Source of the DNA: Blastocatellia bacterium
GTDB taxonomy: Bacteria > Acidobacteriota > Blastocatellia > UBA7656
Reading direction: 5' to 3'
NCBI GenBank assembly: GCA_963765495.1
Contig: CAVXWP010000001.1
Coordinates: forward strand, 591,898-655,897
DNA length: 64,000 bases
A model generated the notes under the pieces. It saw nothing but the letters and a program-made list of their open reading frames with translations. It was not told where the DNA came from and searched no databases. Positions within the stretch are counted from its first letter, which is position 1. Each line of letters begins with the position of its first letter. Shown here piece after piece: positions 2,593-63,668 of this stretch. The position numbers and the translations under genes were made by a program.

Positions 2593-3273
2593 TCAACCTA
2601 TGAATTTATAACCGAGCCCGTGAATTGTGAGAATGAATTGAGGATGGCGGGGATTTGGTTCTAGTTTCTGGCGAAGCCATGCCACGTGTACATCAACCGT
2701 TCGGGTCGAGGGCATGGCATTGTAGCCCCACACTTCGTTCAGCAATTCGTCACGCGAAAGCGTGCTGCCTCTATGATCTATAAAGTAGCGAAGCAATTGA
2801 AACTCGCGGGCGGATAAATCGACTGCCGCACCATTGCAAGTGACTTCGGCGCGGCGAAAATCCACCCGCACAGGCCCGAACTGATAGGCAGTTTGAGGAT
2901 AAACGGTTGCCACGGGTGCGCGACGCAACAGCGCTTCTATTCGCGCAAGCAATTCAATGGTCTCGAAGGGCTTGGTTAAATAATCATCAGCACCCAGTTT
3001 CAAACCCACCACTTTATCTACGACCTGCCCGCGAGCCGTGAGCATGATGAGGGGCGTCTCTATGCCGCGCTGTCGCAAGTCTCTGCATACATCGAACCCG
3101 TTTTTACGCGGAAGCATAACGTCGAGGATGATCAAATCAAACGACTCGGCAGACGCTCTCTCAAACCCGGTCTCACCGTCCCCGGCCGTCTCGACCTTAT
3201 AGCCTTCGCTCGTCAGCCGGTCGCTCAACGTAAGAACCAGTCCCGGCTCATCTTCTATCAATAAAATTCGCAT
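2593..3273 (-). CDS. OmpR/PhoB-family response regulator (receiver plus winged helix)
   Basis: MRILLIEDEPGLV...DVMLP...K receiver and C-terminal wHTH (LTIHGLGYKF). The track N-terminal extension to 3327 (MPVSESRITHHDSRISFN) is encoded by the palindromic repeat and is rejected. Confidence 0.85.
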   Translation of the reverse strand: MRILLIEDEPGLVLTLSDRLTSEGYKVETAGDGETGFERASAESFDLIILDVMLPRKNGFDVCRDLRQRGIETPLIMLTARGQVVDKVVGLKLGADDYLTKPFETIELLARIEALLRRAPVATVYPQTAYQFGPVRVDFRRAEVTCNGAAVDLSAREFQLLRYFIDHRGSTLSRDELLNEVWGYNAMPSTRTVDVHVAWLRQKLEPNPRHPQFILTIHGLGYKFIG

Positions 3274-3284
3274 ATTGAAAGAGA

Positions 3285-3393
3285 TGCGTGAATCGTGATG
3301 CGTGATGCGTGATTCCGAGACAGGCAATTATCTGTAACAAGTCTTCTGCCTCAAAGTCATGTATCACGATTCACGCATCACGATTCACGCGTC
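3285..3393. repeat. heptamer-tandem palindromic element (GCGTGAT type) between the HK and RR cistrons
   Basis: Left arm gatgcgtgaatcgtgatgcgtgatgcgtgattc, about 45 nt loop, right arm gtatcacgattcacgcatcacgattcacgcgtc (imperfect inverse). Confidence 0.75.
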
Positions 3394-5355
3394 GCGCATC
3401 ATTATCAGTGCTTCATCGCTGGCCTCGGTCGCCTGAGCTACAGCGGGCAGGCGCAAAGTGAAGGCGCTTCCACGTCCGGGCGCGCTTTCTACATCCACGC
3501 TTCCGCCGTGGGCATCAATTATGTGTTTTACCAGGCTCAACCCCAGGCCGTTCCCATGAATCTGGGCCGAGGCGGCCTCGCGGCCCCGATAAAACGGTTC
3601 AAAGATGTGAGGCAAATCCGAAGCCGTTATTCCCATTCCACGGTCTTCGATTGTGATTTCGACTTCCAGACCGCGTCTGCCCTGAACCGATTTCGCTCCA
3701 ATCCTTATCAAACGGCTTTCGCCCGCGTATTTCATGGCGTTGTTGAGCAGGTTTTGAATCGCTCGCAGAAGCGCCGCCCTGTCGGCTAAAACCGGAGGCA
3801 GATTCATCTCGATCTCTTTTTCCACATCGAAACCGCCTTCGCTTATCTGCATACGGCAATCGGCGAGCGCCGCGTCGATCAGGTCATTTGCGTCTGTCGG
3901 ATACAGATCATAAGTCTTCTGGCCCGATTGCGCGCCCGCAAAATCGAGCACCTGCTCGACCATCTTCGCAAGCCTCTGCCCTTCGCCCTTTATCAACGCG
4001 CCGTATCGTTTGATCTGCGCCCGGTCGTCGATCACCCCGTCGGCCAGATTTTCGCCCGCCGAACAGATAACGGCGAGCGGGGTCCGCAACTCGTGCGATA
4101 CGCCCGCGACAAATTCAATCTGCTGTCTTGCCAACCGCTGTGCGCGCCGCGTCGAGATTATTATCATCGCTACGCTCACCGCCAGCAGCAAAAGTATGCC
4201 GAAGCTCACGATCAAATTTCGATGACGCACGCCCGCGACCGCCAGATCGAGCGAGCCCGCGCGATGCTTTATCACAAGCTGCCAGACGCCGTCTTTATTC
4301 CCTGTAAGAGAGCCTTTCGCGGACGTCTCTCCCGGCGATTCACTGCGAATGCTGAACGTCATAATCTGCGACCTGTGCTCGCCCGCCGCCGCCGTTTCTC
4401 CGCGCATTCCCATCTCCGGCAACAGATCGCTGAACTCTTCGAACCTCAATCCGAAAAGCCCCGCCGTCTGGTCGCCCGCGACGGCTTCTTCATCAGAGAT
4501 CTTCGCATCGGATCTGTATATGATCTTCTTCGGGTCTTCGCGTTCCACAATCGCCACGTTGTAATCGACTGTATCGCCGCTTGCGAAGTACCTCCGGGCA
4601 AGCAGGGGAAGAAACTCCTGTTTTATGTAATCGAGATCGAGCGTGATAATGTTGTGGCCGGTGAGCGGGGCTATCTCGGGCAACCCCGCGCTTTCGCGAC
4701 TTTCGACGCGAGCGGTAAAGGTCTTTCTCTCCTTTTCGATGAAGCGATATTTCGGGAGCACGACGAAAGCCTTATCGGTCTTCTCTACAAGACGGTCGCC
4801 TGTAATCATTCGAAGTCCGAGTATGGGTGTGACGATGGCGGGCACATCTTCGGCTATAGTATTCAGGAGGTTTCGCGCAAGCATTGCCGGTTCGGGAAGT
4901 TCAGCCCGCTTCATATCGGCAAACGAGTCGCGCAGGGTCAGGAGTTCCGGCGGCCACTCGCGCGGCTTGAGCATAGCCTGCGCCCTGTCGAATTCGAGCA
5001 ATCGAGGCCCGCTCTTGTCGTCCTCTTCAACTACGAATACGCCTTTGACAAGCCTGGGATAAGGCGCGGTTTGAAACCACCTGTCATAACGTTTCGAATA
5101 ATCATCCCATCGGTTATCGCGCAAGTCGGCCGCATCCATCTGCAAACTCAAATATGCGCGGGCAAGTTCGCGGTCAAAATCGCGGCTGAATTGCGTAGCC
5201 CCGGCGCTGAGACTCTCCTGCATCCGCTCGCGCTCTGCCCGGCTGACCTGCCCGAGCCATCGGTATTGCAGGGTCGCAAACAGCGCGAGCAACAATACGA
5301 GCGAGGCGGCAAGCACAAGGGTCAGAGGCGGGCGTTTTTTCAACAGCTTCTTCAC
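3385..5355 (-). CDS. sensor histidine kinase with large N-terminal extracytoplasmic domain
   Basis: H-box AGVSHELRTPLAVI, N/G-box ...LLNNAMKYA...DRGMGI...GLGLSLV; N-terminal TM segment; GTG start. Confidence 0.85.
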   Translation of the reverse strand: MKKLLKKRPPLTLVLAASLVLLLALFATLQYRWLGQVSRAERERMQESLSAGATQFSRDFDRELARAYLSLQMDAADLRDNRWDDYSKRYDRWFQTAPYPRLVKGVFVVEEDDKSGPRLLEFDRAQAMLKPREWPPELLTLRDSFADMKRAELPEPAMLARNLLNTIAEDVPAIVTPILGLRMITGDRLVEKTDKAFVVLPKYRFIEKERKTFTARVESRESAGLPEIAPLTGHNIITLDLDYIKQEFLPLLARRYFASGDTVDYNVAIVEREDPKKIIYRSDAKISDEEAVAGDQTAGLFGLRFEEFSDLLPEMGMRGETAAAGEHRSQIMTFSIRSESPGETSAKGSLTGNKDGVWQLVIKHRAGSLDLAVAGVRHRNLIVSFGILLLLAVSVAMIIISTRRAQRLARQQIEFVAGVSHELRTPLAVICSAGENLADGVIDDRAQIKRYGALIKGEGQRLAKMVEQVLDFAGAQSGQKTYDLYPTDANDLIDAALADCRMQISEGGFDVEKEIEMNLPPVLADRAALLRAIQNLLNNAMKYAGESRLIRIGAKSVQGRRGLEVEITIEDRGMGITASDLPHIFEPFYRGREAASAQIHGNGLGLSLVKHIIDAHGGSVDVESAPGRGSAFTLRLPAVAQATEASDEALIMMRDA

Positions 5356-5424: not shown

Positions 5425-5522
5425 ACGTGAAGCGTGAAGCGTGATTCATGACTTCAGGTGGCAGGATTAAACCAACTTGCAAGCCTCGTAAATCACGAAT
5501 CACGCTTCACGCTTCACGCTTT
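5425..5522. repeat. heptamer-tandem palindromic element (GTGAAGC variant)
   Basis: acgtgaagcgtgaagcgtgattc ... aatcacgaatcacgcttcacgcttcacgct, lying in the divergent region between HK and terC. Confidence 0.75.
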
Positions 5523-7137: not shown

Positions 7138-7833
7138 TCACGCATGTTCGTTTAATTCACGCACAGCCGTTTCAAGTGATCCTATGATCTGTTGGCGGTT
7201 TCCCGTAATCAGTCGAGGCGCGCCGAGGCGGACTTCGCAGAAAAAGGGCACAGGAATATATTCACCCTTCGGCAGGCTCCGCCCCATATTCACGAGGTAG
7301 GCGGGTACGACCGGCACATCGGGCATCTTTTCAAGCAGATGAGCTATGCCGGAGCGAAATTGCCCTACGGCTTCGCCCGACCCGCGCGTCCCTTCGGGAA
7401 ATATGATCAGAGATTGCCCCGCTTCGAGCGCCTCCTGCATGAAGTGAATCGGGTTGCTTTCGGAGGTTATCTTTTTTCTTGCGATGGGCAATATGTTGAA
7501 GAGGGTTTTCGTAAAGATTGAGACCAGCCTGTTGCGCTCGAAGTAATCTGCTGCCGCCACGGGGCGTATATTGCGCAGCCGCCTGAGAGGGAAAAGACTC
7601 AAAAGCGAGATGGTATCGAGATGGCTTGAATGATTCGCAATCAGAATGAATGGATCAGACCCCGGCAGGTGTTCGCGTCCTCGCACGCGCAGCCCGATAA
7701 AGAGCGCCATAAACGACCTTACAAGTGCCGCGAAGAAAATCATCTGTACGATGTTTGCCACAGCGCCGTGCCCGATTGTCCGTTCCGATTTCGCTTCCTT
7801 CTCATCCTTCATCATTTGCTTCCCTCTCTGCAC
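7138..7833 (-). CDS. plsC: 1-acyl-sn-glycerol-3-phosphate acyltransferase (PlsC-like)
   Basis: HX4D motif IANHSSHLDT and FPEGTRG motif; the true start may be an internal Met (MMKDEK). Confidence 0.75.
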   Translation of the reverse strand: MQRGKQMMKDEKEAKSERTIGHGAVANIVQMIFFAALVRSFMALFIGLRVRGREHLPGSDPFILIANHSSHLDTISLLSLFPLRRLRNIRPVAAADYFERNRLVSIFTKTLFNILPIARKKITSESNPIHFMQEALEAGQSLIIFPEGTRGSGEAVGQFRSGIAHLLEKMPDVPVVPAYLVNMGRSLPKGEYIPVPFFCEVRLGAPRLITGNRQQIIGSLETAVRELNEHA

Positions 7834-12115: not shown

Positions 12116-12210
12116 CACGTGATGCGTGATGCGTGATGCGTGACCGGAAGCACCCGGCCCATCGAAGCCCGGTTGTAACTCTCACACATCACGTATCACG
12201 CATCACGTCC
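12115..12210. repeat. heptamer-tandem palindromic element (GCGTGAT x3)
   Basis: acacgtgatgcgtgatgcgtgatgcgtgac ... cacacatcacgtatcacgcatcacgtcc. It overlaps the false 5' extension of the downstream ORF. Confidence 0.75.
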
Positions 12211-14868: not shown

Positions 14869-14930
14869 AATTTGAGATTTGAAATATGAGATTTGAGATT
14901 TGGGATTCCAGATTCCAGATTTCAGCATTC
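14868..14930. repeat. short direct-repeat cluster (GAGATTTGA / GATTCCA units) immediately 3' of the TonB-like gene
   Basis: gaatttgagatttgaaatatgagatttgagatttgggattccagattccagatttcag. Confidence 0.5.
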
Positions 14931-16522: not shown

Positions 16523-16957
16523 AGCGTTCTCCTCGTTAATGTTCTCTGAAGTCGTGAAATTATCATAGCGCGGCACATGAGTAAACCCCTTGTGAGTTGA
16601 TCCGTCGCATGCGTGGCCTATCAGCCAGGGTCATTCAGTTTTCCAATATGTAGAAAGGGAAAAGGCGAATAGGCCGGGACGGACGCGTATGCGACGGATT
16701 TTCGCGGATCTGACTCTATATGATTTAATCCGAGTAGGTCAGCTGCAATTCCCCGTCAGCGTGCTGCGGCTCCATTTCAACTCCCTCTTGCGCGATACCT
16801 GCAGCTTGCTGCGAGGAGCTTAATTATTTTTTCCGCCTAAAATAATTCAAAGTTCTCCTTTTGTCCTCAACTCAAGAACTGAATGGCCCTGCCTATCAGG
16901 GCATGTCTTTCCTTCAAATCCACCTCTGAAGATTATCGACGACGCTTGCCAAAAAAA

Positions 16958-26518: not shown

Positions 26519-26584
26519 CAGCCACAGAGGCGCAAAGACACAGAGAAATAATTCATAAACTCTGTGGCTTTGCGCCTCTGTGGC
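26519..26584. repeat. CACAGAG-type palindromic element / mdh terminator
   Basis: cagccacagaggcgcaaagacacagag - loop - ctctgtggctttgcgcctctgtggc (one mismatch). Confidence 0.65.
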
Positions 26585-27656: not shown

Positions 27657-27747
27657 CTAAGGAGTGCCAATCGTAAATCGACATGCGAGTGCATAAGACT
27701 GCGCGACTCCTGGATTTGAGATCTGAGATCTAAGGAGATTTGAAGTT

Positions 27748-30250: not shown

Positions 30251-31633
30251 ATGAAACGAACCACGATCTTTGGCCTCGCGGCCTGCGGCGCGGCACTCTG
30301 GGCGGCGCAAACCATACTGGCCAGTCCTGAAACACCTCACGAGGGCGCGGCCGAGGCTTCGCACGGCGCGCTCGATCCGATGGTGCTCTTAGGCATCGCG
30401 GTAATCCTGATAGTAGCCAAGCTGGGCGGCGAGTTGTTCGAGCGATTTCATCAGCCCGCTGTCCTGGGAGAGCTTATCAGCGGCATCATCGTAGGCAATC
30501 TCGCGCTGGTCGGATTCACTATGGCCGAGCCTTTGAAAAGCGATGCGGTCATAGGCGCGCTGGCCGAGATCGGAGTCATCATCCTGCTGTTTGAAGTGGG
30601 GCTGGAATCGAATCTCGGTGAGATGCTGGAAGTCGGATGGTCGTCTCTGTTCGTAGCCGTGGCGGGCGTGATCGCTCCCTTTTTCCTCGGGTGGGGCGTG
30701 GCGGCTTACTTTATCCCCGACGAAGCGGAACTGGGTCACATCTTCATAGGCGCTACGCTTTGCGCCACCAGCGTAGGCATCACTGCGCGAGTGCTGAAAG
30801 ACATGGGCAAGCTCGATGCGCGCGAGTCTCGAATCATTCTGGGCGCGGCCGTGATTGACGACGTTTTGGGATTGCTGATTCTCGCCGTTGTGGCGGGCGC
30901 TATCAATTCGGCCTCAACCGGGCAGGCGCTCTCGGCGCTCGACGTAATCATAATAGCGGGCAAAGCGATTCTGTTTCTGATCGGAGCAATCCTACTCGGG
31001 CACTTCGTCGTGCCGCGTCTGTTTCATAACGCCGGGCGACTTGAAAGCCGGGGCGTGCTTCTGGCGCTGGCCATCTCTTTTTGTTTCGTGCTTGCGTGGA
31101 TAGCATCTCGCGTAGGGCTTGCGCCGATTGTAGGAGCATTCGCCGCCGGGCTTGTGCTCGACGAAGCCTACTTCGATAAATTCCGTCAGAAAGGCGAGCA
31201 TTCGCTTGAGCATCTGCTCAAGCCAATAAGCGCGCTGCTTGTGCCGATATTTTTTGTGTTGATGGGATTAAAGGTCGATCTGCGCGCATTCGCCCGGCTC
31301 GATCTGCTTGGCTTTGCGATGGTGCTGACGCTGGTCGCGATAATCGGCAAGCAGATATGCTCGCTCGCCGTGGCCGAGCGCAACCTCAACCGCCTCTCAA
31401 TCGGGCTGGGGATGATACCGCGCGGCGAGGTAGGTCTGATTTTCGCAGGCATTGGAGCCACGTTGATGCTGCCCAACCTCGAAGGCGTGATGGAGCCGGT
31501 AATCAGTTCAGGCACATTCGGCGCGGTGGTGATAATGGTCATCATCACTACGCTTGTCACACCGCCCGCGCTGAAATGGTCGCTTGACCGCACGCCTTCC
31601 GAGAAAGAAAAAAAGGTGGAAGAGAGCGTGTGA
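30251..31633 (+). CDS. cation:proton antiporter (CPA family, Kef/NhaP-like)
   Basis: 12-13 TM segments and Na_H_Exchanger-like GxxxG-rich helices. Confidence 0.8.
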   Translation: MKRTTIFGLAACGAALWAAQTILASPETPHEGAAEASHGALDPMVLLGIAVILIVAKLGGELFERFHQPAVLGELISGIIVGNLALVGFTMAEPLKSDAVIGALAEIGVIILLFEVGLESNLGEMLEVGWSSLFVAVAGVIAPFFLGWGVAAYFIPDEAELGHIFIGATLCATSVGITARVLKDMGKLDARESRIILGAAVIDDVLGLLILAVVAGAINSASTGQALSALDVIIIAGKAILFLIGAILLGHFVVPRLFHNAGRLESRGVLLALAISFCFVLAWIASRVGLAPIVGAFAAGLVLDEAYFDKFRQKGEHSLEHLLKPISALLVPIFFVLMGLKVDLRAFARLDLLGFAMVLTLVAIIGKQICSLAVAERNLNRLSIGLGMIPRGEVGLIFAGIGATLMLPNLEGVMEPVISSGTFGAVVIMVIITTLVTPPALKWSLDRTPSEKEKKVEESV

Positions 31634-31641
31634 CCCGCGCT

Positions 31642-31958
31642 CCGTGATGCGTGAAGAGTGATGCGTGATTTAGCAGGCTTGCATGTAATCTTTATCAGGA
31701 GGTCTGCTAAATTATTCCGCAAGAGATTGGTACAAATGAAATTGAATGAAAGGCAAATTGAAATAGGCCGCGGATTTACGCGGATGCGGCGGATTAGCGC
31801 GGATTAGATCAAATTGGGACTGATCCGCGTAAATCCGTCGCATCCGCGTCATCCGTGGTCTATTTCTACTCACCCTATGTTGGAGTTTCGCTTGTACCAA
31901 TCTTGTGCATTTCGATTTAGAAAGTCACGAATCAAGCATCACTCTTCACGTGAGCGCA
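31642..31958. repeat. about 310-bp nested imperfect palindrome; outer arms are GATGCGTGAAGAGTGATGCGTGATTTAGCAGG type
   Basis: Outer arms ccgtgatgcgtgaagagtgatgcgtgatttagcagg / aatcaagcatcactcttcacgtgagcgcac. A middle tier is caagagattggtacaaatgaaattga / gagtttcgcttgtaccaatcttgtg. The inner tier is ggatttacgcggatgcggcggattagcgcggat / atccgcgtaaatccgtcgcatccgcg. It lies between convergent genes. Confidence 0.75.
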
Positions 31959-31973
31959 CCATTGCCGTTTTTT

Positions 31974-33683
31974 TCAACTTCCAAGCTTCAATATCGCATC
32001 GCGGAGCCGCGCGTGTTTCCGAAGCAGATTGACATACTGCCATTCGTCCGCGCCTCCTTTGGCCCGAATTATTCGAACGAGACCGCTCTTTTCAGCAGCG
32101 GTCCAGTTTTTCAGATCGGGGATGAGGGCAAGCACCAGCGCGAGATTTTCAAACGCCCGCAGCTCGTTCGGTCTCCATCTGTCACGCTGAATTTCGAGCG
32201 CGCGGGCGACTTCCTTTATTGAGGCCGCTCGGACACGCGCCGCGTCCGAGTCAAACTCTTCCGCCATGCGATGCTGAACCGCGAGGGCCAGATTGCGTAC
32301 CTGAAAATTGTCCCAATCGCCACCGGGTGATCCGGGCATCTCGAAGACTACGTGCCCGGACGAAAGACGCCGAAGAGTCTTAACAGATGTTCTGTACCCG
32401 GGTCTGGATTTTATCTTCTTCTCTTCGGCGAGAGTCAGTTTCAAAAGCTCCGGCTTTACGGGGCGGAAACCGAGCTTACGGTAAAACCAGAATGCGCCCG
32501 ACTCGATTGCCTCTTCGTTGTTGTAACCTACCTGATAAGGGTCTATCGAGATCGTCGTCACACCGAGAACCTGATTTAGAAGTTTGAGCGCCCGCCCGTA
32601 CACCCACGCCGATTCGCCTTCGCGAAATGTGTAGAAAGTATTGAAGCCGATCTCCATACGTTCAAACAGCGTAATGCCCTCGATGTAATTTATCGGCACA
32701 CCGTTTTTGAGCGTAAACCCTGCCGCATACCCTCGCAGCGGCAACCGGCGTTCGGGCGCAAGCCCCCACAAAAAAATGCTTGTGCCTCGACCCATATCGG
32801 CTTGCACTGCGGTTTTCGGGTCGCCGTTTGTGATGCCGTAAAGCTCTCGATACCTGACCGCCGTCGCCTCCTTCACCATATCGAGTATCGCTTCGCCTTC
32901 ACTCGGCCTCAGCCTCTCAAGTTCCAGGGGCGGCGAATCAAGCTCCTGAACGATATCAACATCGCTGCGGCGAAGAAGCGCGCCCGTGTGATAAAAGACC
33001 TCCGGCACCCGGCGTTTCAACGCCGTGCGCGAAACCGGGAGTTCCTGCATTTCCCATCTGAGGGGCAATTCCATCAAATCGTAAAGCTGCGCTTTCTCTC
33101 TATGCGCAAGCGGCAGGCGGTCAAAGCCGCGAAGAAGCAATGAAAGATCCGATTCGTCTCGCGCTTTTGCGGCGCGGAGCCAGTCAAGATAAGGGATGTT
33201 CGCCTCGACGAGCGAGTCTTCTTCAAGCAGAGGGAGCAGGCGGGGCCAGACAGAGCCCAGCCGTTCTTTCTTCTCGTAGCGATCCCAATCAACCTCGACC
33301 CTTTCAGGAAAACGTCTGACCAGAAAGCGCGCGATTTCGTAGCTGAACGTGCCCGAAAGCGCGGTTCCGGCGATGCCCGAATATTCAATGTAATTGAACG
33401 GCGTGAGGTCTGCGCCCGTCGAGCGAAGATGTTCTACGCGCGAGGAAAACCCGGCGACGAGGTCTTCGACCCTGCCGAGCACTTCCCTGCTCTGCGGGTA
33501 TGCGCGCAAAAAAAGTAGCGCCTCGTGAAGACGTATGAGCGAAAGCGCGTCGGGGAAATTCCTGCGAGCAAGCTCAGTGAGCAACTTCTCTACGCGTTTG
33601 CCGTCGCCCTTATTGAAATGGCGCTTTGCTTCTTCGAGTTGTGAAAGAAGATCATCGAGTGTTCTGGGCGGCATAATTTTCAC
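31974..33683 (-). CDS. hypothetical protein (569 aa) with GNAT-like C-terminal motif
   Basis: Long ORF whose C-terminal half contains SGAFWFYRKLGFRP, resembling an acetyl-CoA-binding motif; no other family recognised. Confidence 0.5.
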   Translation of the reverse strand: MKIMPPRTLDDLLSQLEEAKRHFNKGDGKRVEKLLTELARRNFPDALSLIRLHEALLFLRAYPQSREVLGRVEDLVAGFSSRVEHLRSTGADLTPFNYIEYSGIAGTALSGTFSYEIARFLVRRFPERVEVDWDRYEKKERLGSVWPRLLPLLEEDSLVEANIPYLDWLRAAKARDESDLSLLLRGFDRLPLAHREKAQLYDLMELPLRWEMQELPVSRTALKRRVPEVFYHTGALLRRSDVDIVQELDSPPLELERLRPSEGEAILDMVKEATAVRYRELYGITNGDPKTAVQADMGRGTSIFLWGLAPERRLPLRGYAAGFTLKNGVPINYIEGITLFERMEIGFNTFYTFREGESAWVYGRALKLLNQVLGVTTISIDPYQVGYNNEEAIESGAFWFYRKLGFRPVKPELLKLTLAEEKKIKSRPGYRTSVKTLRRLSSGHVVFEMPGSPGGDWDNFQVRNLALAVQHRMAEEFDSDAARVRAASIKEVARALEIQRDRWRPNELRAFENLALVLALIPDLKNWTAAEKSGLVRIIRAKGGADEWQYVNLLRKHARLRDAILKLGS

Positions 33684-36168: not shown

Positions 36169-36296
36169 AGAAGAGGGACCAGGGGCCGACTGGCGCATGA
36201 TGCGCTATCGCGCGGCGCGGGGCTGGGGGCCAGTCTGCTGCAAGAGAAACAGTCATCTTAGCCCGGAGCCCCCGGCCCCTGACCCCCGGCCCCCGA

Positions 36297-37655
36297 CTAA
36301 ACGATTCTTCCGATCAAATCGTAATCGTGCGCTTCGGTAATCTCTACGGTGACGAAATCGCCCGGCTGCGCCAGCCGGTCTTCCTCCACATCGTTGATCA
36401 GAATTGATCCGTCAATCTCGGGCGCTTGAGATTGCATGCGGCCTTCAAGCAACAGGTCGCTTTCTTTCGAACGACCTTCGAGCAGGACCGGCACGCGGCG
36501 GCCTACGAGCGAGCGGTTTTTGCGCCTTGAAATCCGCGCCTGCTCTTTCATCAAACGGCGCTCGCGGTTTTTCATCGTTGCCTGATCCACTTTTTCATTG
36601 AGCGCAAAGGCAGCCGAGTTCTCTTCATCCGAATAGGTGAATACGCCCACGCGGTCGAACTCTACTGCGCGAGTAAAATCAAGAAGCTCTTCGAAGTCCT
36701 CTTCGCGCTCGCCCGGGAAACCGACTATGAAGGTAGTACGAACGGCAACATCGGGCACGCGCTTTCGTATGCGCTCGATCATGCGTTCGTAAGAACCGCG
36801 CCCGCCGCCTCTGCGCATGCGCTGAAGCACTCGGCGGCTCGCGTGCTGGAGCGGTATATCGAAGTATGAGCAGACGTTCGGGCGTTCGGCCATCACGCGC
36901 AGCAACTCGTCCGAGATGCCTGTCGGATAGCAATAAAGAAATCTGATCCAGTCGAGGCCGCCAATGTCGGCAAGCGAGTCAAGCAGGCGGGCGAGTCCGT
37001 CCTTAAGAGCGAGGTCTGTGCCGTAGTTGACCGTGTCCTGCGAGATGAGAACTACTTCCCTGACGCCCTGAGCCGCGAGCATTTCGGCCTCTCTCAGGAT
37101 CGATTCGGGCGAACGCGAACGAAAGGTGCCGCGCAAGCGTGGGATTATGCAAAACGCGCAGGTGTGATCGCACCCTTCGGCTATTTTTATGTATGAAGTG
37201 TATGGCGCGGTGGCGCGAATGCGCGGCGTGGTTTCATCATAAAGATAAAGCTCCGGGGCGGAGGCTCCTTCGCTGTAAACGGGAAGCTTTCTTCGACCGC
37301 CCGGCTCGGCCACGTCCAGAATATCTTCCAGTTGATTGACTCCGATGCAGGCGTCTATCTCGGGTATCTCGCGCTGAAGCTCGTCCTTGTATCGTTCGAC
37401 CAGACATCCGGCGACGATCAATCGCTTGAGATTGCCCGATTGTTTGAGGCCGGCCATCTCGAGGATCGTGTCTACGGATTCCTGCCGCGCAGAGTCGATG
37501 AATCCGCACGTGTTGACGACGAGTATATCGGCCCGGTCGCGGTCGGCAGTCAGTTCATACCCTTTGCGGGCGAGCATGCCAAGCATCACCTCGCTGTCAA
37601 CAAGGTTCTTCGGGCAGCCCAGGCTCACCATTCCTACTCTCTTTTTTTCAGCCAT
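36297..37655 (-). CDS. rimO: ribosomal protein S12 methylthiotransferase
   Basis: VGMVSLGCPKNLVDSE N-terminus, radical-SAM CxxxCxxC (CDHTCAFC), and C-terminal TRAM domain. Confidence 0.85.
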   Translation of the reverse strand: MAEKKRVGMVSLGCPKNLVDSEVMLGMLARKGYELTADRDRADILVVNTCGFIDSARQESVDTILEMAGLKQSGNLKRLIVAGCLVERYKDELQREIPEIDACIGVNQLEDILDVAEPGGRRKLPVYSEGASAPELYLYDETTPRIRATAPYTSYIKIAEGCDHTCAFCIIPRLRGTFRSRSPESILREAEMLAAQGVREVVLISQDTVNYGTDLALKDGLARLLDSLADIGGLDWIRFLYCYPTGISDELLRVMAERPNVCSYFDIPLQHASRRVLQRMRRGGGRGSYERMIERIRKRVPDVAVRTTFIVGFPGEREEDFEELLDFTRAVEFDRVGVFTYSDEENSAAFALNEKVDQATMKNRERRLMKEQARISRRKNRSLVGRRVPVLLEGRSKESDLLLEGRMQSQAPEIDGSILINDVEEDRLAQPGDFVTVEITEAHDYDLIGRIV

Positions 37656-37844
37656 GTACTTCTTCTCTTAAGTCCTTCAGGTCAGCGATTTGCGCGCTGA
37701 GGTAAACAACCATATTAAATCATCGGCTGAAGATTTGCCAGCATGGACTGTAGAGCCGAAGCACGTAACTTTTACTGATAGAGAAATGAGATAAACTCCA
37801 TAAGTCTGCTCAAGACACTATAAACCTTTTGAAGGAGAAGACTT

Positions 37845-39137
37845 ATGGAGCCTGACACAGTTCATTCTATCGCCAATCTCATCTTTGACGCTATGCCTGC
37901 CTCTAGCTTTAGTGACAAATCTGCCCACCAGATGGAACAACTTGTTCAGCAACTTCTGGCTTCTATCGCCAACTCCCTGATGCAGGATTTCTTATTTCCT
38001 TCCAGAATCAACCAGATTCAGCAACTTGTAGAGAGTGGTCAAATTCTCTGCAAAAGCTGTGGTTCGCTTCTTAAACTCCACAAACGTGACTGCTCGATTC
38101 ATCCAAAGACGATCTTTGCCTCAAAGATTACCCTTACTCGCAATCAATACCATTGTCAGCAGTGTGACTCCTACACCATGGTCGCTGACCAGGAGCTTGA
38201 GTTGCTATCTCGGCAGATGCTGCCCCGCTTAGCTTTGATTGTTGTGATGTGTGGAGCAAGCTGGCCTTACGGCGTGGCTTCTGCCTTCCTCGATTTTTTG
38301 TTCGGCGTAGAAGTTTCGGCAAAGACCGTAGAACTTGCTACGACAGATGAGCGGCTGTTGCCTGACGAACTTGACCCTGCCCCAATGGATCAGCCTCCAG
38401 GCCTAGTGACAATGGATGGCGTTGTAATACACGGACGCAAAAAGGAGCAATGGCTTGAGATGAAAGTGGGCGAGTTTTTCTCCTCCGTTGTAGAAGTGAG
38501 CAAAGATCGTCGAGAGGTAATGGATGCAAGCTTTGTGGCCAATGCGTGCGAGCGGTGGGTGGATTTTCAAGCTCCGGTAACTGAGGAAGCCTTGCGCCGT
38601 GGGATAGGCCCGACATCAGAGGTGGAGTTTGTCGCTGATTCAGCAGAAGGGATATGGAGTTTGTGCGATATGGTATTCCCCTGTGCGAAAAAACGACTCG
38701 ATCTCTATCACGCAAAGTGCAAGGTAGGCGAGCGAAGTCGGGAGGCATACTCTGGGAGAGGAGATAAGAAACAGAGGCAGGAGAAGTTACAACAATGGCT
38801 AGAGGAAGGAGAAACAGGGCAAGCGCTAAAGTACCTGCAAAAGCATATGCCGAAGAGTGAAACGAAGAAGGAGGCAGCAAAGAAGTTAATCAGATACCTG
38901 AAACGAAATGAAGAGAGGATAGTCAATTATGAGCAAGTAAAGGAGGAAGGAGGGACGAGAAGCAGTGGGCTTCAAGAGAAAGGAAATGACCTAATAGTAA
39001 ATCGAAGGATGAAGGAAGGGATAATGCATTGGAGTAGAGAAGGAGCCAATCCAATCCTATTGCAAAGGACAGGATTCATAAACAAGTATGCGAGGGCAAG
39101 GACAGGTCCTTACGAATTAGCTTTCTGTCAAGCCTGA
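37845..39137 (+). CDS. putative DDE transposase-like protein (N-terminal Cys4 zinc ribbon; C-terminal RMKEGIMHWSREGANPILLQR motif)
   Basis: CKSCGS...CQQCDS ribbon; the C-terminal motif resembles ends of several IS transposases; low GC. Family could not be assigned from memory. Confidence 0.4.
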   Translation: MEPDTVHSIANLIFDAMPASSFSDKSAHQMEQLVQQLLASIANSLMQDFLFPSRINQIQQLVESGQILCKSCGSLLKLHKRDCSIHPKTIFASKITLTRNQYHCQQCDSYTMVADQELELLSRQMLPRLALIVVMCGASWPYGVASAFLDFLFGVEVSAKTVELATTDERLLPDELDPAPMDQPPGLVTMDGVVIHGRKKEQWLEMKVGEFFSSVVEVSKDRREVMDASFVANACERWVDFQAPVTEEALRRGIGPTSEVEFVADSAEGIWSLCDMVFPCAKKRLDLYHAKCKVGERSREAYSGRGDKKQRQEKLQQWLEEGETGQALKYLQKHMPKSETKKEAAKKLIRYLKRNEERIVNYEQVKEEGGTRSSGLQEKGNDLIVNRRMKEGIMHWSREGANPILLQRTGFINKYARARTGPYELAFCQA

Positions 39138-39677: not shown

Positions 39678-39725
39678 CACACAGAGACACAGAGATTTTT
39701 ATAATTCTTCTCTGTGTCTCTGTGC
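39678..39725. repeat. CACAGAG-type palindromic element
   Basis: cacacagagacacagaga - tttttataattctt - ctctgtgtctctgtg. Confidence 0.7.
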
Positions 39726-42070: not shown

Positions 42071-44017
42071 ATGCCAAAAAACAATAAAGCGAATACGCGC
42101 AGGCGGGCGTCAGCCGGGAAGCTCTCTGTGGGGGCCGAGGTATTGTCTGACGGTGGGGTTCGTTTCCGCGTATGGGCCTCAGGGTGCAAGAAGGTAGAAG
42201 TAGTAGTCGAAAACAAGACCGAATCTGGGCCGGGCCGATTGCCTCTGGCCGTTGAGTTGGAACCGGAAGCCGGTGGCTACTTTTCGGGTTTCCTACCCGA
42301 AGCAGGCGCGGGTGCTCTTTACAGATACAGGCTCGATTCCGGCGATGATCTTTATCCCGACCCTGCCTCGCGGTTTCAGCCCGAAGGTCCGCACGGGCCT
42401 TCTGAGGTCATTGACCCCAGCCTGTTTAAGTGGACCGACACAAAGTGGGGGGGCGCTCGCATTGATGGTCAGGTGATCTATGAAATGCACATCGGCACAT
42501 TCACCGAAGAGGGCACGTGGGAGGCCGCTACGCGTGAGCTCGACGAGCTTGCCGAGCTTGGCATAACTGCAATCGAGGTCATGCCGGTTCACGAATTCCC
42601 CGGTCGGTTCGGGTGGGGATACGACGGCGTAGACCTGTTTGCGCCGACTCGTCTCTACGGCGTGCCTGATGATTTTCGCCGCTTCGTTGACCGCGCGCAC
42701 GGGGCAGGGATCGCCGTGATTCTGGATGTCGTTTACAACCACCTGGGGCCGGACGGCAATTATCTCAAACAGTTTTCCGAGAATTATTTTTCAAAAGAGT
42801 ACGACACGGACTGGGGCGAAGCCATAAACTTCGATGGGGAAAATTCCGAACCGGTGCGCGAATTTTTCATCTCTAACGCCTGTTACTGGATCACGGAATT
42901 TCATCTGGACGGGTTACGCATTGATGCCACGCAAAATATTTACGACAAATCGGACGACCATATCCTCGGAGTTCTCACGCGTCGGGCCAGAGAGGCGGCC
43001 GGGAAGCGAGCCATCTTTGTCGTAGGCGAAAACGAGCCCCAACAGGCGAAGCTGCTCAGAAAACCGGAAGAGGGCGGTTACGGGCTTGACGCGCTCTGGA
43101 ACGACGATTTCCATCATACGGCGATGGTCTTTTTGACGGGACGCCGGGAAGCCTACTACACCGATTACACGGGCACGCCGCAGGAATTTATCTCGGCGGC
43201 AAAATGGGGATTTCTCTATCAGGGACAGCGCTACAAATGGCAAAAACAGAGACGCGGGACTCCTACGTTCGGGCTGGCCCCCTCTGCTTTTATCAATTTC
43301 ATACAGAATCACGATCAGGTAGCAAACTCTGCGCGAGGCGACCGCGTGCATCGCCTGACGGGTCCGGGGCTCTATCGCGCGATGACCGCTCTGATGCTGC
43401 TTATGCCGGGAACGCCCATGCTGTTTCAGGGGCAGGAATTCGCCGCATCGAGCCCGTTTCAATACTTTGCCGATCACGCGCCCGAGCTTGCCAAACTTGT
43501 GACGCGTGGCCGCCTAAAGTTCCTCTCTCAGTTTCGGAGCCTCGCGCTCGAAGAGATGCACGCGGGGATTGATGAGATGGCCCCAAACGATCTGGAGACC
43601 TTTACGCGCTCGAAGCTCGATTTCGCGGAGCGCGAGCGCCACAAAGAGATTTATGAAATGCACCGCGACCTGCTCGGGCTGCGTCAAAACGACGCGGTAT
43701 TCAGCGCGCAGAAAAAGGGCGCGCTTGACGGGGCGGTGCTCGGGGCCGAGGCGTTTGTCTTGCGCTTCTTCGGGGAGGGCGGAGACGACCGGCTTCTGAT
43801 TGTAAATCTCGGCGAAGACATGCGTTTTGACCCGGCCCCCGAACCATTGCTTGCGCCGCCCGAAGAGAAGAGGTGGCAGGCAATCTGGTCCAGCGAAGAC
43901 CCTCGATATGGAGGGTTGGGAACGCCTCCGCTCGATACGAAAAAGAACTGGCAACTTCCGGGGCGTTCGGCTGTCGCCCTTCGGGCAATACAGAGGGAGG
44001 ATGAAGAAAATGAATGA
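42071..44017 (+). CDS. treZ: malto-oligosyltrehalose trehalohydrolase (GH13 with CBM48)
   Basis: VRFRVWAS (CBM48), VILDVVYNHLGPDGNYL and GH13 catalytic regions. Confidence 0.75.
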   Translation: MPKNNKANTRRRASAGKLSVGAEVLSDGGVRFRVWASGCKKVEVVVENKTESGPGRLPLAVELEPEAGGYFSGFLPEAGAGALYRYRLDSGDDLYPDPASRFQPEGPHGPSEVIDPSLFKWTDTKWGGARIDGQVIYEMHIGTFTEEGTWEAATRELDELAELGITAIEVMPVHEFPGRFGWGYDGVDLFAPTRLYGVPDDFRRFVDRAHGAGIAVILDVVYNHLGPDGNYLKQFSENYFSKEYDTDWGEAINFDGENSEPVREFFISNACYWITEFHLDGLRIDATQNIYDKSDDHILGVLTRRAREAAGKRAIFVVGENEPQQAKLLRKPEEGGYGLDALWNDDFHHTAMVFLTGRREAYYTDYTGTPQEFISAAKWGFLYQGQRYKWQKQRRGTPTFGLAPSAFINFIQNHDQVANSARGDRVHRLTGPGLYRAMTALMLLMPGTPMLFQGQEFAASSPFQYFADHAPELAKLVTRGRLKFLSQFRSLALEEMHAGIDEMAPNDLETFTRSKLDFAERERHKEIYEMHRDLLGLRQNDAVFSAQKKGALDGAVLGAEAFVLRFFGEGGDDRLLIVNLGEDMRFDPAPEPLLAPPEEKRWQAIWSSEDPRYGGLGTPPLDTKKNWQLPGRSAVALRAIQREDEENE

Positions 44018-46055
44018 AGTGATTCACAAAGTGCCTCTCAAAGAGGCAAGCGAGGATGGATCAGATCCGCTGGTCTCACGTGAATGGCTGGTAACGAACG
44101 GGCTTGGGGGGTACGCTTCGGGGACGATTTCAGGCGTCCTGACGCGGCGGTTTCATGGGATGCTCGTAGCCTCGCTGCCCGCGCCGTTCGGTCGAATGAT
44201 GATGCTCAACAAGGTTTCGGAGCGGGTCCATCTGTCGGATGGTTCGACTATCCGGCTCGACGGAGAAGACCACATTGATAAATCCTTAAACCTGTATGAT
44301 GCGAAATATCTGACCGGGTTCCGGCTCGAAATGGGGTTGCCCGTCTGGCGCTATGAAATCGAAGGCACGATTCTGGAAAAGCGCGTCCTTCTACCTTACA
44401 AGCAAAACACCGTCTATATCACCTACACCATGCTTGCCGGAGACGGCAAAATAAGGCTTGAACTGCACCCGGCTGTTCAGTTTCGCCCGCACGAAGGAAG
44501 GTTGGACGTGAAGACGCAGAAGCCCTACCGGCTGGCGATAGTCGAGGATCGTTATGAGTTGTCAAGCGACGCTCAATTGCCGTCGCTCAGGATGCAGATT
44601 TACTCCAAGCAGGAAGCCTTCACATTTTCTAGAAAGCATATACGCGACCTGTGTTATCAAAGGGAGCAGAGCAGGGGGTACGATTACACTGGCGATCTGT
44701 GGAGCCCGGGTTATTTCCACGCGGAGCTTAGCGAAGGGAGCGCCGCGACGCTCGTAGCCTCTACCGAAGAATGGGAGACCATTCATGCCATGCCGCCAAG
44801 CGAGGCGTTTGATTCCGAGTGCGAACGCCGCCGCCAGTTGCTCAGCGCGGCGCACGTGAAGGCTCAGGAGGGAACGGCCGCCGAACTTGTGTTTGCCGCC
44901 GACCAGTTCTTGATAACCCCCGCCGGTCGCGTGGAAGACGCGGCGCGCGCTCACGCTTCAGGCGAAGAGTTACGCTCGGTCATAGCCGGTTACCACTGGT
45001 TCACCGACTGGGGCCGCGACACCATGATCAGCCTCGAAGGGCTGACGCTTGTGACCGGACGCCAGAAGGAGGCCAACTGGATACTGCGCACCTTCGCGCA
45101 TTACATCCGCGACGGCCTGATCCCGAATATGTTCCCCGAAGGCGAAAAGCAGGGCCTATATCACACGGCTGATGCCACGCTCTGGTTCTTTCACGCGATG
45201 TCGCGCTACGTCGCCTCCACAGGTGATCGAGAGACTTTGCGAGTGCTGCTTCCTCGCCTGATAGAGATCATAGACCATCATCTGAAAGGCACGCGCTTTG
45301 GCATCAAGGTAGACCCGAGTGACGGGTTGTTGACTCAGGGCGAGGAGGGCTATCAACTTACGTGGATGGATGCCAAGGTCGGCGATTGGGTAGTGACTCC
45401 GCGCCGGGGCAAGGCCGTCGAGATAAACGCGCTGTGGTACAACGCCTTGAGATGTGTGGAAGAGTGGGTGCGCGAAGCGCAGAATGAAGATAAGGCGCGT
45501 CCCTTTGCCGAGCACGCCGACCGCGTCCTCAGATCGTTCAACGAGCGATTCTGGTATGAGGAAGGCGGGTACCTTTACGACCTGATTGACGGCGAGCACG
45601 GAGATGATCCCGCCTTACGACCGAATCAGATATTTGCCCTATCGCTCCCTTACGCGATTCTCGACCGCGAGCATTGGGAGCCGGTCGTAGAGATCGTGCG
45701 CAAACAATTGCTCACACCTGTCGGGCTCCGCTCGCTCGCGCCGGGGCACGCGGATTACAAGTCCACTTATGACGGCGACCTTCACGCGCGCGATGCGGCC
45801 TATCATCAGGGAACGGTGTGGGGATGGCTGATCGGCCCGTTCATTGACGCGTGGCTCAAACTGCACCCGGAAGACATCAAGGGCGCAAGAGAGATGCTCG
45901 AAGGATTCGTGCCTCATCTGGATGAATTCGGCGTAGGCTCGATAGCCGAAATCTTCGACGCCGAACCGCCTTATCATCCGCGCGGCTGTATCGCTCAGGC
46001 ATGGAGCATAGCCGAAGTGCTCCGTTGCTGGGTGAAAACGACAACTGAGGGATGA
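44010..46055 (+). CDS. glycogen debranching enzyme, amylo-alpha-1,6-glucosidase (GDE_C/GH133-like)
   Basis: ...FTDWGRDTMISLEGLTLVTGR...; its start overlaps the treZ stop; GGGAGGA RBS. The track start at 43827 is rejected. Confidence 0.75.
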   Translation: MNEVIHKVPLKEASEDGSDPLVSREWLVTNGLGGYASGTISGVLTRRFHGMLVASLPAPFGRMMMLNKVSERVHLSDGSTIRLDGEDHIDKSLNLYDAKYLTGFRLEMGLPVWRYEIEGTILEKRVLLPYKQNTVYITYTMLAGDGKIRLELHPAVQFRPHEGRLDVKTQKPYRLAIVEDRYELSSDAQLPSLRMQIYSKQEAFTFSRKHIRDLCYQREQSRGYDYTGDLWSPGYFHAELSEGSAATLVASTEEWETIHAMPPSEAFDSECERRRQLLSAAHVKAQEGTAAELVFAADQFLITPAGRVEDAARAHASGEELRSVIAGYHWFTDWGRDTMISLEGLTLVTGRQKEANWILRTFAHYIRDGLIPNMFPEGEKQGLYHTADATLWFFHAMSRYVASTGDRETLRVLLPRLIEIIDHHLKGTRFGIKVDPSDGLLTQGEEGYQLTWMDAKVGDWVVTPRRGKAVEINALWYNALRCVEEWVREAQNEDKARPFAEHADRVLRSFNERFWYEEGGYLYDLIDGEHGDDPALRPNQIFALSLPYAILDREHWEPVVEIVRKQLLTPVGLRSLAPGHADYKSTYDGDLHARDAAYHQGTVWGWLIGPFIDAWLKLHPEDIKGAREMLEGFVPHLDEFGVGSIAEIFDAEPPYHPRGCIAQAWSIAEVLRCWVKTTTEG

Positions 46056-46156
46056 GGGATGAAAAGGACTGTCAGGATAGATTTCGATGATATGGTCAAT
46101 CCCATTAATCGGGATGTTTCCCCAGAGTCCTTTTCATCCCTCATCCCTCATCCCTT
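46047..46156. terminator. bidirectional terminator / heptamer-tandem palindrome (GGGATGA type) covering both convergent stop codons
   Basis: gagggatgagggatgaaaaggact - 55 nt - agtccttttcatccctcatccctcatccc. Confidence 0.65.
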
Positions 46157-47605
46157 CGTATGCGCTTGTATCCAGTCGCCTATAACTTTGAGGGCAAGCG
46201 GAGAGATCGTCTCTTCGATTGAGGAGTATTCGACGGGCGAGCCGGTTTTACTGGTCTGGAACAGATGATTGAGGTTTGGAAGTTTTACCAGAGTGTAATC
46301 GTTGTTGCCGCCGTCTTCGAGGGCCTTCGAGATAGCGGGCAGGTTTGCGCTGGGAGGAACCTGTAAATCCTTAGCGCCGTTTATCGCAAGGACCGGGCAT
46401 TTCACTTTCATGAGTGTGGGGCGCGGGTCGTAGGTGAGGAAGTATTGAAACCACGGCGTGAGAAGAGTCTTCAGATTGTTTTCAAGCGAGCTTTCGGAGA
46501 TGCCCATCTTCTTCTTTTCCTCTTCGGTCATTGTGGCCATATCGGCAAGCGTCTTTTCGCGTATCTTCTTTTCAGCGACTTTCAAATCCTTCTCCTGTTT
46601 CATCACCGAGAAGATTTTTTCCTGCGCCTGACGAGAGCGAGCTACGACCTCGTCGCTTGCGCCGTTTGCTTTTGCGATCAATTCGCCCTGAAGATAGAGA
46701 ATCTCTTCGCCGGTTATGCCGGGTCCGGCCATCAGAATTATGAACGCGACATCTGCCGATTTTACGGCCACAATCGGCGCGATTATTCCGCCTTCGCTAT
46801 GGCCCAGAATTCCAATCCGGTGGTTGTTTATCTCTTTACGGCTCTTGAGAAACTCTACGCCCGCAAGCGCGTCGCCCGCGAAATCCTGGCTTGTGGCTTC
46901 TCGGAAATTGCCGGTTGATTTGCCGACCCCGCGATCATCCACGCGAAGAACCGCTATCCCGAGGCGGGTCAGGTAATCAGCCAGCACGAGGAACGGGCGA
47001 TGTCCCAGCACGGTTTCGTTGCGGTCCTGAGGGCCGGAACCTGTGACGAGAAGGACCGCCGGAAACGGTCCCTGGGAGCGCGGCAAGGTCAACGTTCCGG
47101 CAAGTGTCACTCCGGCCTCCTTGTTTTCGTATGCCACCTCTTCTTCCAGATAGGGGTAAGGCTTTTTCGGTTCCTGCGGGCGGGCAAACTCAACCGCCTT
47201 GCCGCTTTCGGAAGCGAGTTTGCGTTCGAGCTTGAAGGGAAAGGTCTGACCACCCTGTGTGAAATTCCCTGAAATCGCTTTGCCGTCTTCGGCAAGCCTT
47301 CCGCTAAAGGACGGATCGCCGGGAACTCCCGGCATGACGAAAGATATTTGTTTGTCTTCGACGGTGATCTGGCCGAGCGCGAAGTCTTTAAGCCCCTGGG
47401 CGGGAACGGCTATGGTGCCTGTCCACGCGCCCTCTTTTTGAGCCAGGTCAACCAGGATGTCGAGCTTGAGGCTGGGAACCTCTATCTGACCTTCCCAGTG
47501 TCCGGCTGCTGCGGGCGGATTTTGCGCAAGAACGCCAAGCGGCGCTTGCCCTATTAATAAGATCAGGATCGCCAGTCGCGGTAAAAAGTGCTTCGTCATT
47601 CTCAA
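46148..47605 (-). CDS. secreted alpha/beta-fold hydrolase
   Basis: Signal peptide; GHSEG nucleophile elbow; dienelactone-hydrolase/S9-like C-terminal domain. Confidence 0.75.
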   Translation of the reverse strand: MRMTKHFLPRLAILILLIGQAPLGVLAQNPPAAAGHWEGQIEVPSLKLDILVDLAQKEGAWTGTIAVPAQGLKDFALGQITVEDKQISFVMPGVPGDPSFSGRLAEDGKAISGNFTQGGQTFPFKLERKLASESGKAVEFARPQEPKKPYPYLEEEVAYENKEAGVTLAGTLTLPRSQGPFPAVLLVTGSGPQDRNETVLGHRPFLVLADYLTRLGIAVLRVDDRGVGKSTGNFREATSQDFAGDALAGVEFLKSRKEINNHRIGILGHSEGGIIAPIVAVKSADVAFIILMAGPGITGEEILYLQGELIAKANGASDEVVARSRQAQEKIFSVMKQEKDLKVAEKKIREKTLADMATMTEEEKKKMGISESSLENNLKTLLTPWFQYFLTYDPRPTLMKVKCPVLAINGAKDLQVPPSANLPAISKALEDGGNNDYTLVKLPNLNHLFQTSKTGSPVEYSSIEETISPLALKVIGDWIQAHTKG

Positions 47606-60388: not shown

Positions 60389-60472
60389 CAGCATCGCGCT
60401 CCGCGATGCTGTATCTCGAATCTCAAATTTCAGATCTCAGGTGTGTAATCAATCATCAATGAGAAAAAAGAG

Positions 60473-60554
60473 CGGAGGGGACAGGACTCGAACCTGCAAG
60501 GGCTTTCGCCCGGCGGTTTTCAAGACCGCTTCCTTACCATTAGGATACCCCTCC
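60473..60554 (-). tRNA. tRNA-Ser (anticodon UGA), class II with 15-nt variable arm
   Basis: Reverse complement reads GGAGGGG-TA-TCCT-AATGGTA-AGGA-A-GCGGT-CTTGAAA-ACCGC-CGGGCGAAAGCCCTT-GCAGG-TTCGAGT-CCTGT-CCCCTCC-G. Cloverleaf checked by hand; CCA not encoded. Confidence 0.85.
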
Positions 60555-63544: not shown

Positions 63545-63668
63545 TCGTGATGCGGTCAATGATGCGTGATGCGTGATGCGTGATTTAGCAGACTATCAAG
63601 CTGTCTTAAACCTGCGGTCTGCCGTATAGTCACAAATCACTCTTCACGCATCATTGACCGCGTCACTG
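63545..63668. repeat. heptamer-tandem palindromic element (GCGTGAT x4; shares GATGCGTGATTTAGCAG and GTGAAGAGTGAT blocks with the 31642 element)
   Basis: aatcgtgatgcggtcaatgatgcgtgatgcgtgatgcgtgatttagcagac ... gtcacaaatcactcttcacgcatcattgaccgcgtcac. Confidence 0.75.

Follow-up and report, generated by a model that had tools for sequence, protein, structure and literature searches.

Cyanobacterial STRR heptamers are a case related to the repeats considered here. Heptameric repeats are reported to be over-represented in bacteria and to lack a detailed study (PMC4692102). In Xanthomonas, GGGAATC arrays make up 70–75 inverted convergent pairs per genome that are able to form stem-loops (Rehm et al. 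2015, PMC4692102), and Beggiatoaceae, Cyanobacteria and Bacteroidetes have arrays of TAACTGA whose mechanism is not known (MacGregor 2015, PMC4679880). REP units are 20–40 nt long and carry a GTAG or CGTC tag (PMC3733652). A literature search for the CGTGATG array string of the present locus returned only unrelated primer sequences and no genomic feature. Drosophila foldback (FB) transposons have long inverted arms composed of tandem short-unit arrays, with variable arm length and variable central sequence; they are eukaryotic, kilobase-scale elements with a known associated transposase, and their resemblance to the element described below is an architectural analogy only.

The window analyzed here, a stretch of 64,000 nt from a Blastocatellia bacterium, contains a gap between two convergent genes that consists of a ~320-bp long imperfect palindrome. 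The reading that we favor, with a probability of about 0.6, is that this locus is non-coding interspersed-repeat DNA: a palindromic repeat of one family (family 1) with a palindromic repeat of another (family 2) inside it. The 320-bp stretch is most likely selfish or structural repeat DNA. We refer to the family-1 copy at this locus as A and to its two short paralogs in the window as B and C (Table 1).

Among described systems, the element is most like REP/BIME and MITEs in behavior and most like the Xanthomonas pairs in architecture. It shares with the latter intergenic tandem 7-nt arrays of at least two units, a complementary array nearby, and a copy number that varies between loci. Unlike the Xanthomonas repeat, the CGTGAnn / GTGATGC unit of this locus lacks a G3 run and cannot form a G-quadruplex; it also recurs across phyla with a fixed arm order, and copy A carries a second repeat nested inside. 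A further difference is that three copies, A, B and C, share a homologous center, which makes them copies of a single element at dispersed sites and more than local arrays. The likeness to REP/BIME lies in short extragenic palindromic units that are numerous, located between genes and arranged in mosaic clusters without target-site duplication, in the alternating unit orientation (here in the family-2 arms at 16599–16795), and in the proposed roles of mRNA 3′-end protection and transcription barrier. In contrast to REP units, the elements here measure 95–330 nt, have tandem-array arms starting with CGTGA arrays and lack a GTAG/CGTC tag; the family-2 arm is not self-complementary, and no RAYT (Y1_Tnp) gene or other transposase was found next to the elements among the 28 window ORFs scanned against Pfam. 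MITEs, including nested insertions, match the locus in their inverted terminal arms, ~100–300 bp length, multiple homologous copies, intergenic position and element-within-element arrangement. The MITE hallmark of terminal inverted repeats with homologous interiors is present in family 1 (A, B and C), and family 2 comprises two copies. MITEs differ in that no target-site duplication flanks any copy here and two of the five window copies have unrelated centers; we know of no parent insertion sequence with ends matching these elements. Unit size and tag, target-site duplication and G-quadruplex capacity thus place the element outside the REP, MITE and Xanthomonas classes, respectively.

The sole transposase-like match in the window is a 430-aa ORF at 37845–39137 with a weak Pfam match to UPF0236 (E = 9e-6), which we take to be an ISLre2-type transposase family. 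An inverted repeat at 37783–37863 lies just upstream of this ORF, and the two may represent an insertion sequence; nothing ties the ORF to the hairpins.

Table 1. Positions in the window of the composite palindrome, its parts, its paralogs and the neighboring genes.
Feature	Position	Strand	Remarks
Na+/H+ exchanger gene	30251–31633	+	Pfam Na_H_Exchanger, E = 1e-56
Composite palindrome (containing copy A)	31637–31958	.	Fills gap between convergent genes
Family-1 left arm	31643–31670	+	Heptamer array CGTGATG / CGTGAAG / AGTGATG / CGTGATT
Family-1 central hairpin	31668–31712	+	ATTTAGCAGGC, 23-nt loop, GTCTGCTAAAT; homologous to centers at 63545 and 5426
Nested module	31713–31922	+	Present in A, absent from B and C; boundaries uncertain by ~8 nt
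Left middle-tier arm, GCAAGAGATTGGTACAAATGAAA	31719–31741	+	No other copy found
Family-2 core	31740–31885	+	GAAAGG..AAATAGGCC, CGCGGATnnn arrays, loop 31808–31819, inverse arrays, CTATTTCTACTCACCCT
Right middle-tier arm, TTTCGCTTGTACCAATCTTGTGC	31886–31908	+	Center 31813.5 common with inner arms
Family-1 right arm, AGTCACGAATCAAGCATCACTCTTCACGTG	31923–31952	+	Complement of left array
566-aa gene	31974–33674	-	No Pfam match; convergent with exchanger gene
Family-1 paralog B	63547–63666	+	Short form, without the 210-nt block
Family-1 paralog C	5426–5521	-	Short form, opposite orientation, between divergent genes
Heptamer-armed hairpin, unrelated center	3276–3407	.	Overlaps 3′ end of histidine-kinase gene
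Heptamer-armed hairpin, unrelated center	12117–12208	.	Begins 1 nt past upstream gene's stop codon
Second family-2 copy	16645–16812	+	Right arm decayed
Extra short family-2 arm	16599–16626		Three arms there alternate in orientation
Family-2 module ends			GCAAGAGATTGGTACAA

The palindrome starts 4 nt past the exchanger stop codon and ends 16 nt short of the opposite stop. The original prediction had described a ~310-bp palindrome with three inverted-repeat tiers between convergent genes, and an inverted-repeat search recovered each tier where it had been placed: an outer tier at 31650–31670 / 31930–31950 (21 nt, 95% complementary, GTGATGC-type heptamers), a middle tier at 31719–31741 / 31886–31908 (23 nt, 83%), and an inner tier in two parts, 31760–31775 / 31851–31866 (16 nt, 88%) and 31778–31807 / 31820–31849 (30 nt, 87%). 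TRF analysis bore out the description of the outer arms as heptamer arrays, assigning them a period of 7 with GTGATGC-type units, and resolved the inner arms into 9–10-nt CGCGGATnnn arrays. The string proposed for the middle tier held only in part: its first ~23 nt are inverted-repeated, whereas nothing complementary to the 'ATGAAATTGA...' part is present on the opposite side. A basal GC clamp closes the palindrome (GCGCTC at 31637–31642, GAGCGC at 31953–31958), and alignment of one arm against the other revealed an extra 45-nt hairpin in the left arm, the family-1 central hairpin, which the right arm lacks.

Structure prediction returned a very stable RNA fold on both strands. The minimum free energy of the + strand was -174.1 kcal/mol, compared with -94.6 ± 4.8 kcal/mol for shuffled sequences (z = -16.6; 0/100 as good), and that of the - strand was -148.2 kcal/mol (z = -11.9); folded as single-stranded DNA, the stretch reached -91.3 kcal/mol (z = -13.8). 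The predicted fold is one rod with two small side hairpins. These results demonstrate that the palindrome structure far exceeds chance. Outside the clamp, an A7 run (31609–31615) lies within the last exchanger codons and a T7 run (31968–31974) abuts the stop codon of the opposite gene; the corresponding segments, GAAAAAAAGG and CCGTTTTTTTC, are mutually complementary and may represent a fourth, outermost tier or a bidirectional U-tract.

The heptamer arms define a set of related hairpins in the window. With at most one mismatch, GTGATGCGTGA occurs 23 times against 1.24 expected, and the matches cluster in the five heptamer-armed hairpins of Table 1 (A, B, C and the two with unrelated centers). 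TRF assigned a period of 7 to arrays at 31643–31669, 3283–3313, 5426–5444, 12118–12143 and 63560–63584, all of them intergenic. We tested the hairpin centers for homology by local alignment with the arrays excluded and with 300 shuffles for each comparison. The center of B matched that of A (z = 7.3), the reverse strand of C matched B (z = 5.8), and C matched A (z = 4.2), with 0/300 shuffles as good in every case; three of the five window hairpins are therefore homologous in their centers, and the other two are unrelated. A family-1 element, ~95–135 bp long, combines CGTGAnn array arms with a small, conserved hairpin at the center and, at the base, a GC clamp, which A and B have in common. The number of array units varies between arms and between copies, and a direct-repeat check found no target-site duplication flanking any of the five copies of family-1 type.

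A three-way MAFFT alignment demonstrated the colinearity of A, B and C from the heptamer arrays over the central hairpin (GTGATTTAGCAGRC) to the right arm (AGTCAYRAATCA). Comparison with the copy near 63545 thus identified a colinear homolog, and the alignment revealed one contiguous extra block, ~31713–31922 (~210 nt), in A only. After removal of this block, A aligns end to end with B, with 86 of 119 positions identical. Since A carries the block and B and C do not, the window holds two empty paralogs and one filled copy. With arms, central hairpin and flank order shared by A, B and C, family 1 is, as judged from alignment, a true family.

Other period-7 arrays of many kinds are present in this genome. 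A palindrome with TGAGGGA / TCATCCC heptamer arms (46028–46175; 43-nt arms, 84% complementary) overlaps both stop codons of the convergent genes 43827–46055 (+) and 46148–47605 (-), and the stop codon of the + strand gene comes from the array itself. Unpaired heptamer arrays were found at 14870–14922 (ATTTGAG x7.6), 60413–60439 (ATCTCAA x3.9, adjoining the tRNA at 60473–60554), 27713–27731 (GATCTGA x2.7) and 36268–36297 (GCCCCCG x4). Near-perfect CACAGAG-unit hairpins at 26521–26584 (25-nt arms, 96%) and 39680–39724 (16-nt arms, 100%) may form another small repeat family, and a 13-nt tandem repeat, CCCAATCGGTTCC, is present 6.2 times at 1125–1205.

The extra block of A lies just 3′ of the family-1 central hairpin and is built from inverted arrays of the 9–10-nt CGCGGAT unit together with two conserved, non-complementary subterminal segments. 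Smith–Waterman alignment of 31700–31930 against 16580–16860 paired 31740–31908 with 16645–16812 at a score of 46.6, against a null of 15.1 ± 2.8, with 121 of 186 columns identical (65%); blastn detected a 29-nt match between the two copies (93%, E = 1.4e-6). The alignment reaches beyond the CGCGGAT arrays and includes both 18/19-nt segments that are unpaired in A (left, GAATGAAAGGCAAATTGAAATAGGCC; right, CTATTTCTACTCACCCT). Because these unpaired segments are conserved between both copies, they are part of an element with defined left and right ends and not decay products, and on this comparison of sequences family 2 is a true family. The copy at 16645–16812 sits outside any family-1 element and no longer folds like A (z = -1.9; 11/200 shuffles as good).

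At the second locus, a cluster of three alternating family-2 arms (16594–16903) lies upstream of a small minus-strand ORF, and the cluster is flanked by a locus-specific inverted repeat (16614–16640 / 16877–16903, 27 nt, 78%). Just beyond each of the two family-2 copies there is thus an inverted repeat unique to that copy.

In A, 31813.5 is the center of the middle arms and of the inner arms alike, and the two sides do not differ in net length over ~72 nt of each arm. This common center points to nesting at two levels instead of three: that a third element should have landed precisely in the middle of the second is less likely than one module, and the middle and inner tiers are accordingly read as a single family-2 module, which they probably are. 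The suggestion of an element within an element therefore survives in modified form, with a block that is absent from two paralogs and homologous to a separate locus, but with two levels of nesting instead of three.

A caveat to the one-module reading is the middle-arm sequence, which has no convincing second copy in the data searched. No convincing counterpart of the middle-tier arm was found at 16.6 kb, elsewhere in the window or in the 2 Mb of fetched loci. A metagenome scan gave 13 matches, none a convincing copy: nine lie in one coding region, three are chance matches, and the thirteenth (L131) lies inside a CTGATGA-armed palindrome and, with 32 nt at 84%, is no better than the chance matches. 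This last locus, at 3020–3310 of the soil metagenome contig Ga0210408_10000155, is a ~240-bp palindrome with CTGATGA-type heptamer arms that contains GCAAGAGATTGGTACAAAGGAAA, matching the middle-tier arm. In IMG/VR, the middle-tier arm gave 88 single matches and no inverted pair, and the inner-arm pattern gave 0 matches. Blastn against plasmids and phages returned no match, and a 62-aa frame across the element, used as a protein query for spurious ORFs on other copies, returned no candidate.

To place the heptamer arms in a wider context, we scanned 185,579 species-representative genomes for (GTGATGC)2.5 and obtained at least 118 stretches, with the phylum taken from the record title. Among the 118 matches listed, ~59 belong to Chloroflexota, 17 to Verrucomicrobiota / PVC, 6 to Acidobacteriota, 5 each to Nitrospirota, Vulcanimicrobiota and Desulfobacterota, and 21 to other groups. 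An inverted pair, defined as an array followed by its complement within 400 nt, is present at 43 of these 118 listed loci; the centers of paired arrays among the matches listed span 5–351 nt and are unrelated in sequence. In IMG/VR, the array occurs on 33 viral contigs, on 5 of them as inverted pairs. Arm order, counted over loci L002–L119, L136–L168 and the window (the matches listed, the IMG/VR loci and the present stretch), was GTGATGC...GCATCAC in 59 cases and the reverse in 5, with 14 cases of neighboring same-orientation arrays. As a result of this nearly fixed order, whichever side one enters from, the first array encountered carries TGA in every frame, as the left array of A (31643–31670) does; the complement of the TGA-bearing array contains no stop codon.

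Nested palindromes recur in this class, as indicated by strongly self-folding centers (z < -3) in 8 of the 33 pairs with a center of at least 40 nt among the matches listed, including the 31637–31958 locus (z = -12), L067, L101 and L160. Of the flanking open-frame pairs, again among the matches listed, 34 are co-directional, 10 divergent and 7 convergent; with mostly co-directional flanks, the class is not specific to terminator positions. Array pairs 0.4–5 kb apart have mixed orientation, and no consistently oriented pair was found of the kind that element ends would give; these pairs do not point to an autonomous element.

Individual members of the class vary in what their centers hold. In the Desulfococcaceae HSG8 locus L067 (4457–4698 and 7149–7997), the centers of CGTGATG-armed hairpins hold GCGGGGGATTGACAAATCCCCCGC hairpins; at L101 (3313–3524), the center of such a hairpin is a perfect CCCTTGTCATTC / GAATGACAAGGG hairpin; at L160 (1807–1971), a second tier of GCTACGA arrays lies inside; and at L098 (2922–3033), the inner arrays, GGATCAG and ACGCAAT, are non-complementary. 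The Chloroflexota BJ8 locus L118 has three short CGTGATG hairpins (1945–1995, 3334–3398 and 7393–7434) one in each of three consecutive gaps that separate abutting co-directional frames, an arrangement resembling that of intercistronic REP elements.

The best relatives of the exchanger protein are annotated as Blastocatellia, Pyrinomonadaceae or Acidobacteriota, and the closest has only 79% amino acid identity. At this nearest ortholog locus (L133), downstream synteny is broken, and the gap after the exchanger ortholog contains a 17-nt unit repeated directly three times (4236–4285) and no palindrome. A GAAGGAT-heptamer palindrome is present elsewhere on the same contig.

How the palindrome arose admits several accounts. 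That it is an assembly artefact, a fold-back chimera of a long-read assembly, has a next to negligible probability: the 1.31-Mb source contig may derive from long reads and short-read contigs do break within the element, but a fold-back chimera would be perfect, whereas the arms here are only 78–95% complementary and include asymmetric segments. Moreover, two independent short-read contigs from run ERR11718635 cover both sides through the outer and middle tiers into the inner arms, L001 being identical to the window up to 31771 and L257 from 31842 on; this agreement, together with the divergence of the arms from each other, indicates that the palindrome is genuine. The contigs are unbranched across the outer and middle tiers and break only at the family-2 core, 31772–31841. 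They stop at the edges of this 70-nt core, though no 31-nt perfect inverted repeat is present there, and the break may reflect either further near-identical copies in the sample or a drop in coverage at the hairpin. Unbranched assembly at the middle tier indicates that no near-identical second copy of it exists in that sample, an observation that also speaks for growth of the palindrome in place. Under that account, local inverted duplication by template switching at a hairpin, combined with array slippage, enlarged a family-1 copy, and the likeness to 16645–16812 would reflect a shared short array motif. The exactly co-centered middle and inner tiers, their arms of equal length, the absence of a target-site duplication and the uniqueness of the middle-tier arms in the data searched are all in its favor. 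A shared array motif cannot, however, explain a homology of ~140–170 nt that takes in the two non-palindromic segments, left and right in unchanged order, and uniform decay of a local duplication would not yield non-pairing segments at random-level identity to each other beside neighboring blocks that are 85–100% complementary. We consider growth in place improbable for these reasons. That B and C descend from ancestors which lost the block, as an alternative to insertion in A, is formally possible, and the ends of block 31713–31922 show neither a target-site duplication nor a clean terminal inverted repeat.

What the stretch does is a separate question. The original prediction had also raised a structured ncRNA; such an RNA would be either a rod-like sRNA or a 3′-UTR regulatory element. 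The very low fold z-score of the + strand agrees with this, as does the + strand fold being 26 kcal/mol better than that of the - strand, with 14 G-U pairs against 7; but any DNA palindrome folds well on both strands, and the G-U bias (14/21) is weak, other elements showing no consistent bias relative to gene direction. No Rfam family reached threshold: a search of the whole window with Rfam 15 in gathering mode returned only the tRNA at 60473–60554, and E-value mode over 31500–32100 returned only microRNA hairpin models scoring below threshold, one of them at 41 bits where gathering requires 150. A consensus scan found no promoter-like site within the element. Nor is the structure conserved: the family-2 paralog at 16645–16812 has lost the fold, and the nearest ortholog locus has no counterpart. 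An RNA gene at this locus, whether sRNA or 3′-UTR element, is thus very unlikely. A second functional proposal is domestication: the element would serve as a bidirectional transcription barrier and mRNA 3′-end stabilizer that also stops translational read-through, and would be retained for a ~120-bp hairpin that halts convergent transcription and shields the two 3′ ends. This proposal, to which we give a fairly low probability, bears on function and does not conflict with an origin as a repeat. It gains from the way the element fills the convergent gap, from the extremely stable fold on both strands, and from the A7 and T7 runs that flank the element symmetrically. In several family-1-type copies the first position is only a few nt away from a stop codon, and the arm order GTGATGC...GCATCAC (59 vs 5, among the matches listed) puts the stop-bearing array first on either strand. 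Against it, there is no canonical stem-plus-U-tract terminator, the T7 and A7 runs being 10–30 nt away from the stem base (a scan for a GC-rich stem with a U-tract gave one 5-bp internal candidate, no more than shuffles give), class members lie mostly between co-directional genes, with 10 of 51 divergent among the matches listed, copy C included, and the nearest ortholog locus manages without the element.

Under the favored reading of one palindromic repeat nested in another, the 210-nt block would have arrived as a single insertion, or via recombination, into a tolerant site between convergent genes. The arm arrays may then have been lengthened and shortened by slipped-strand mispairing, which fits the copy-number differences between arms and between copies. 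A transcript entering the element from either gene would fold into a ~120-bp rod, and this rod might act like a REP/BIME hairpin, as a 3′-end barrier against exonucleases and read-through; the TGA-bearing arrays would close every reading frame, whichever side is entered. The likely effect on the two transcripts is that of a long hairpin at their 3′ ends.

Beyond this genome, CGTGAnn hairpins of fixed arm order might be cross-phylum mobile fold-back elements, or cis-elements for a conserved protein, with the arrays as recognition sites and the centers as lineage-specific cargo; we regard this as doubtful. If it is true, the locus records one palindromic family using another as a landing site. 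The fixed arm order across phyla and, within this genome, the homologous centers of the copies argue for copying of whole elements, not for local slippage alone. For annotation, the conspicuous 320-bp palindrome of this Blastocatellia genome is to be treated as repeat DNA and not as a gene. A family with recognizable copies, with sites both filled and empty, and with a nested partner provides a concrete handle on how heptameric repeats spread, and the same family offers a test of whether such repeats act on transcripts.
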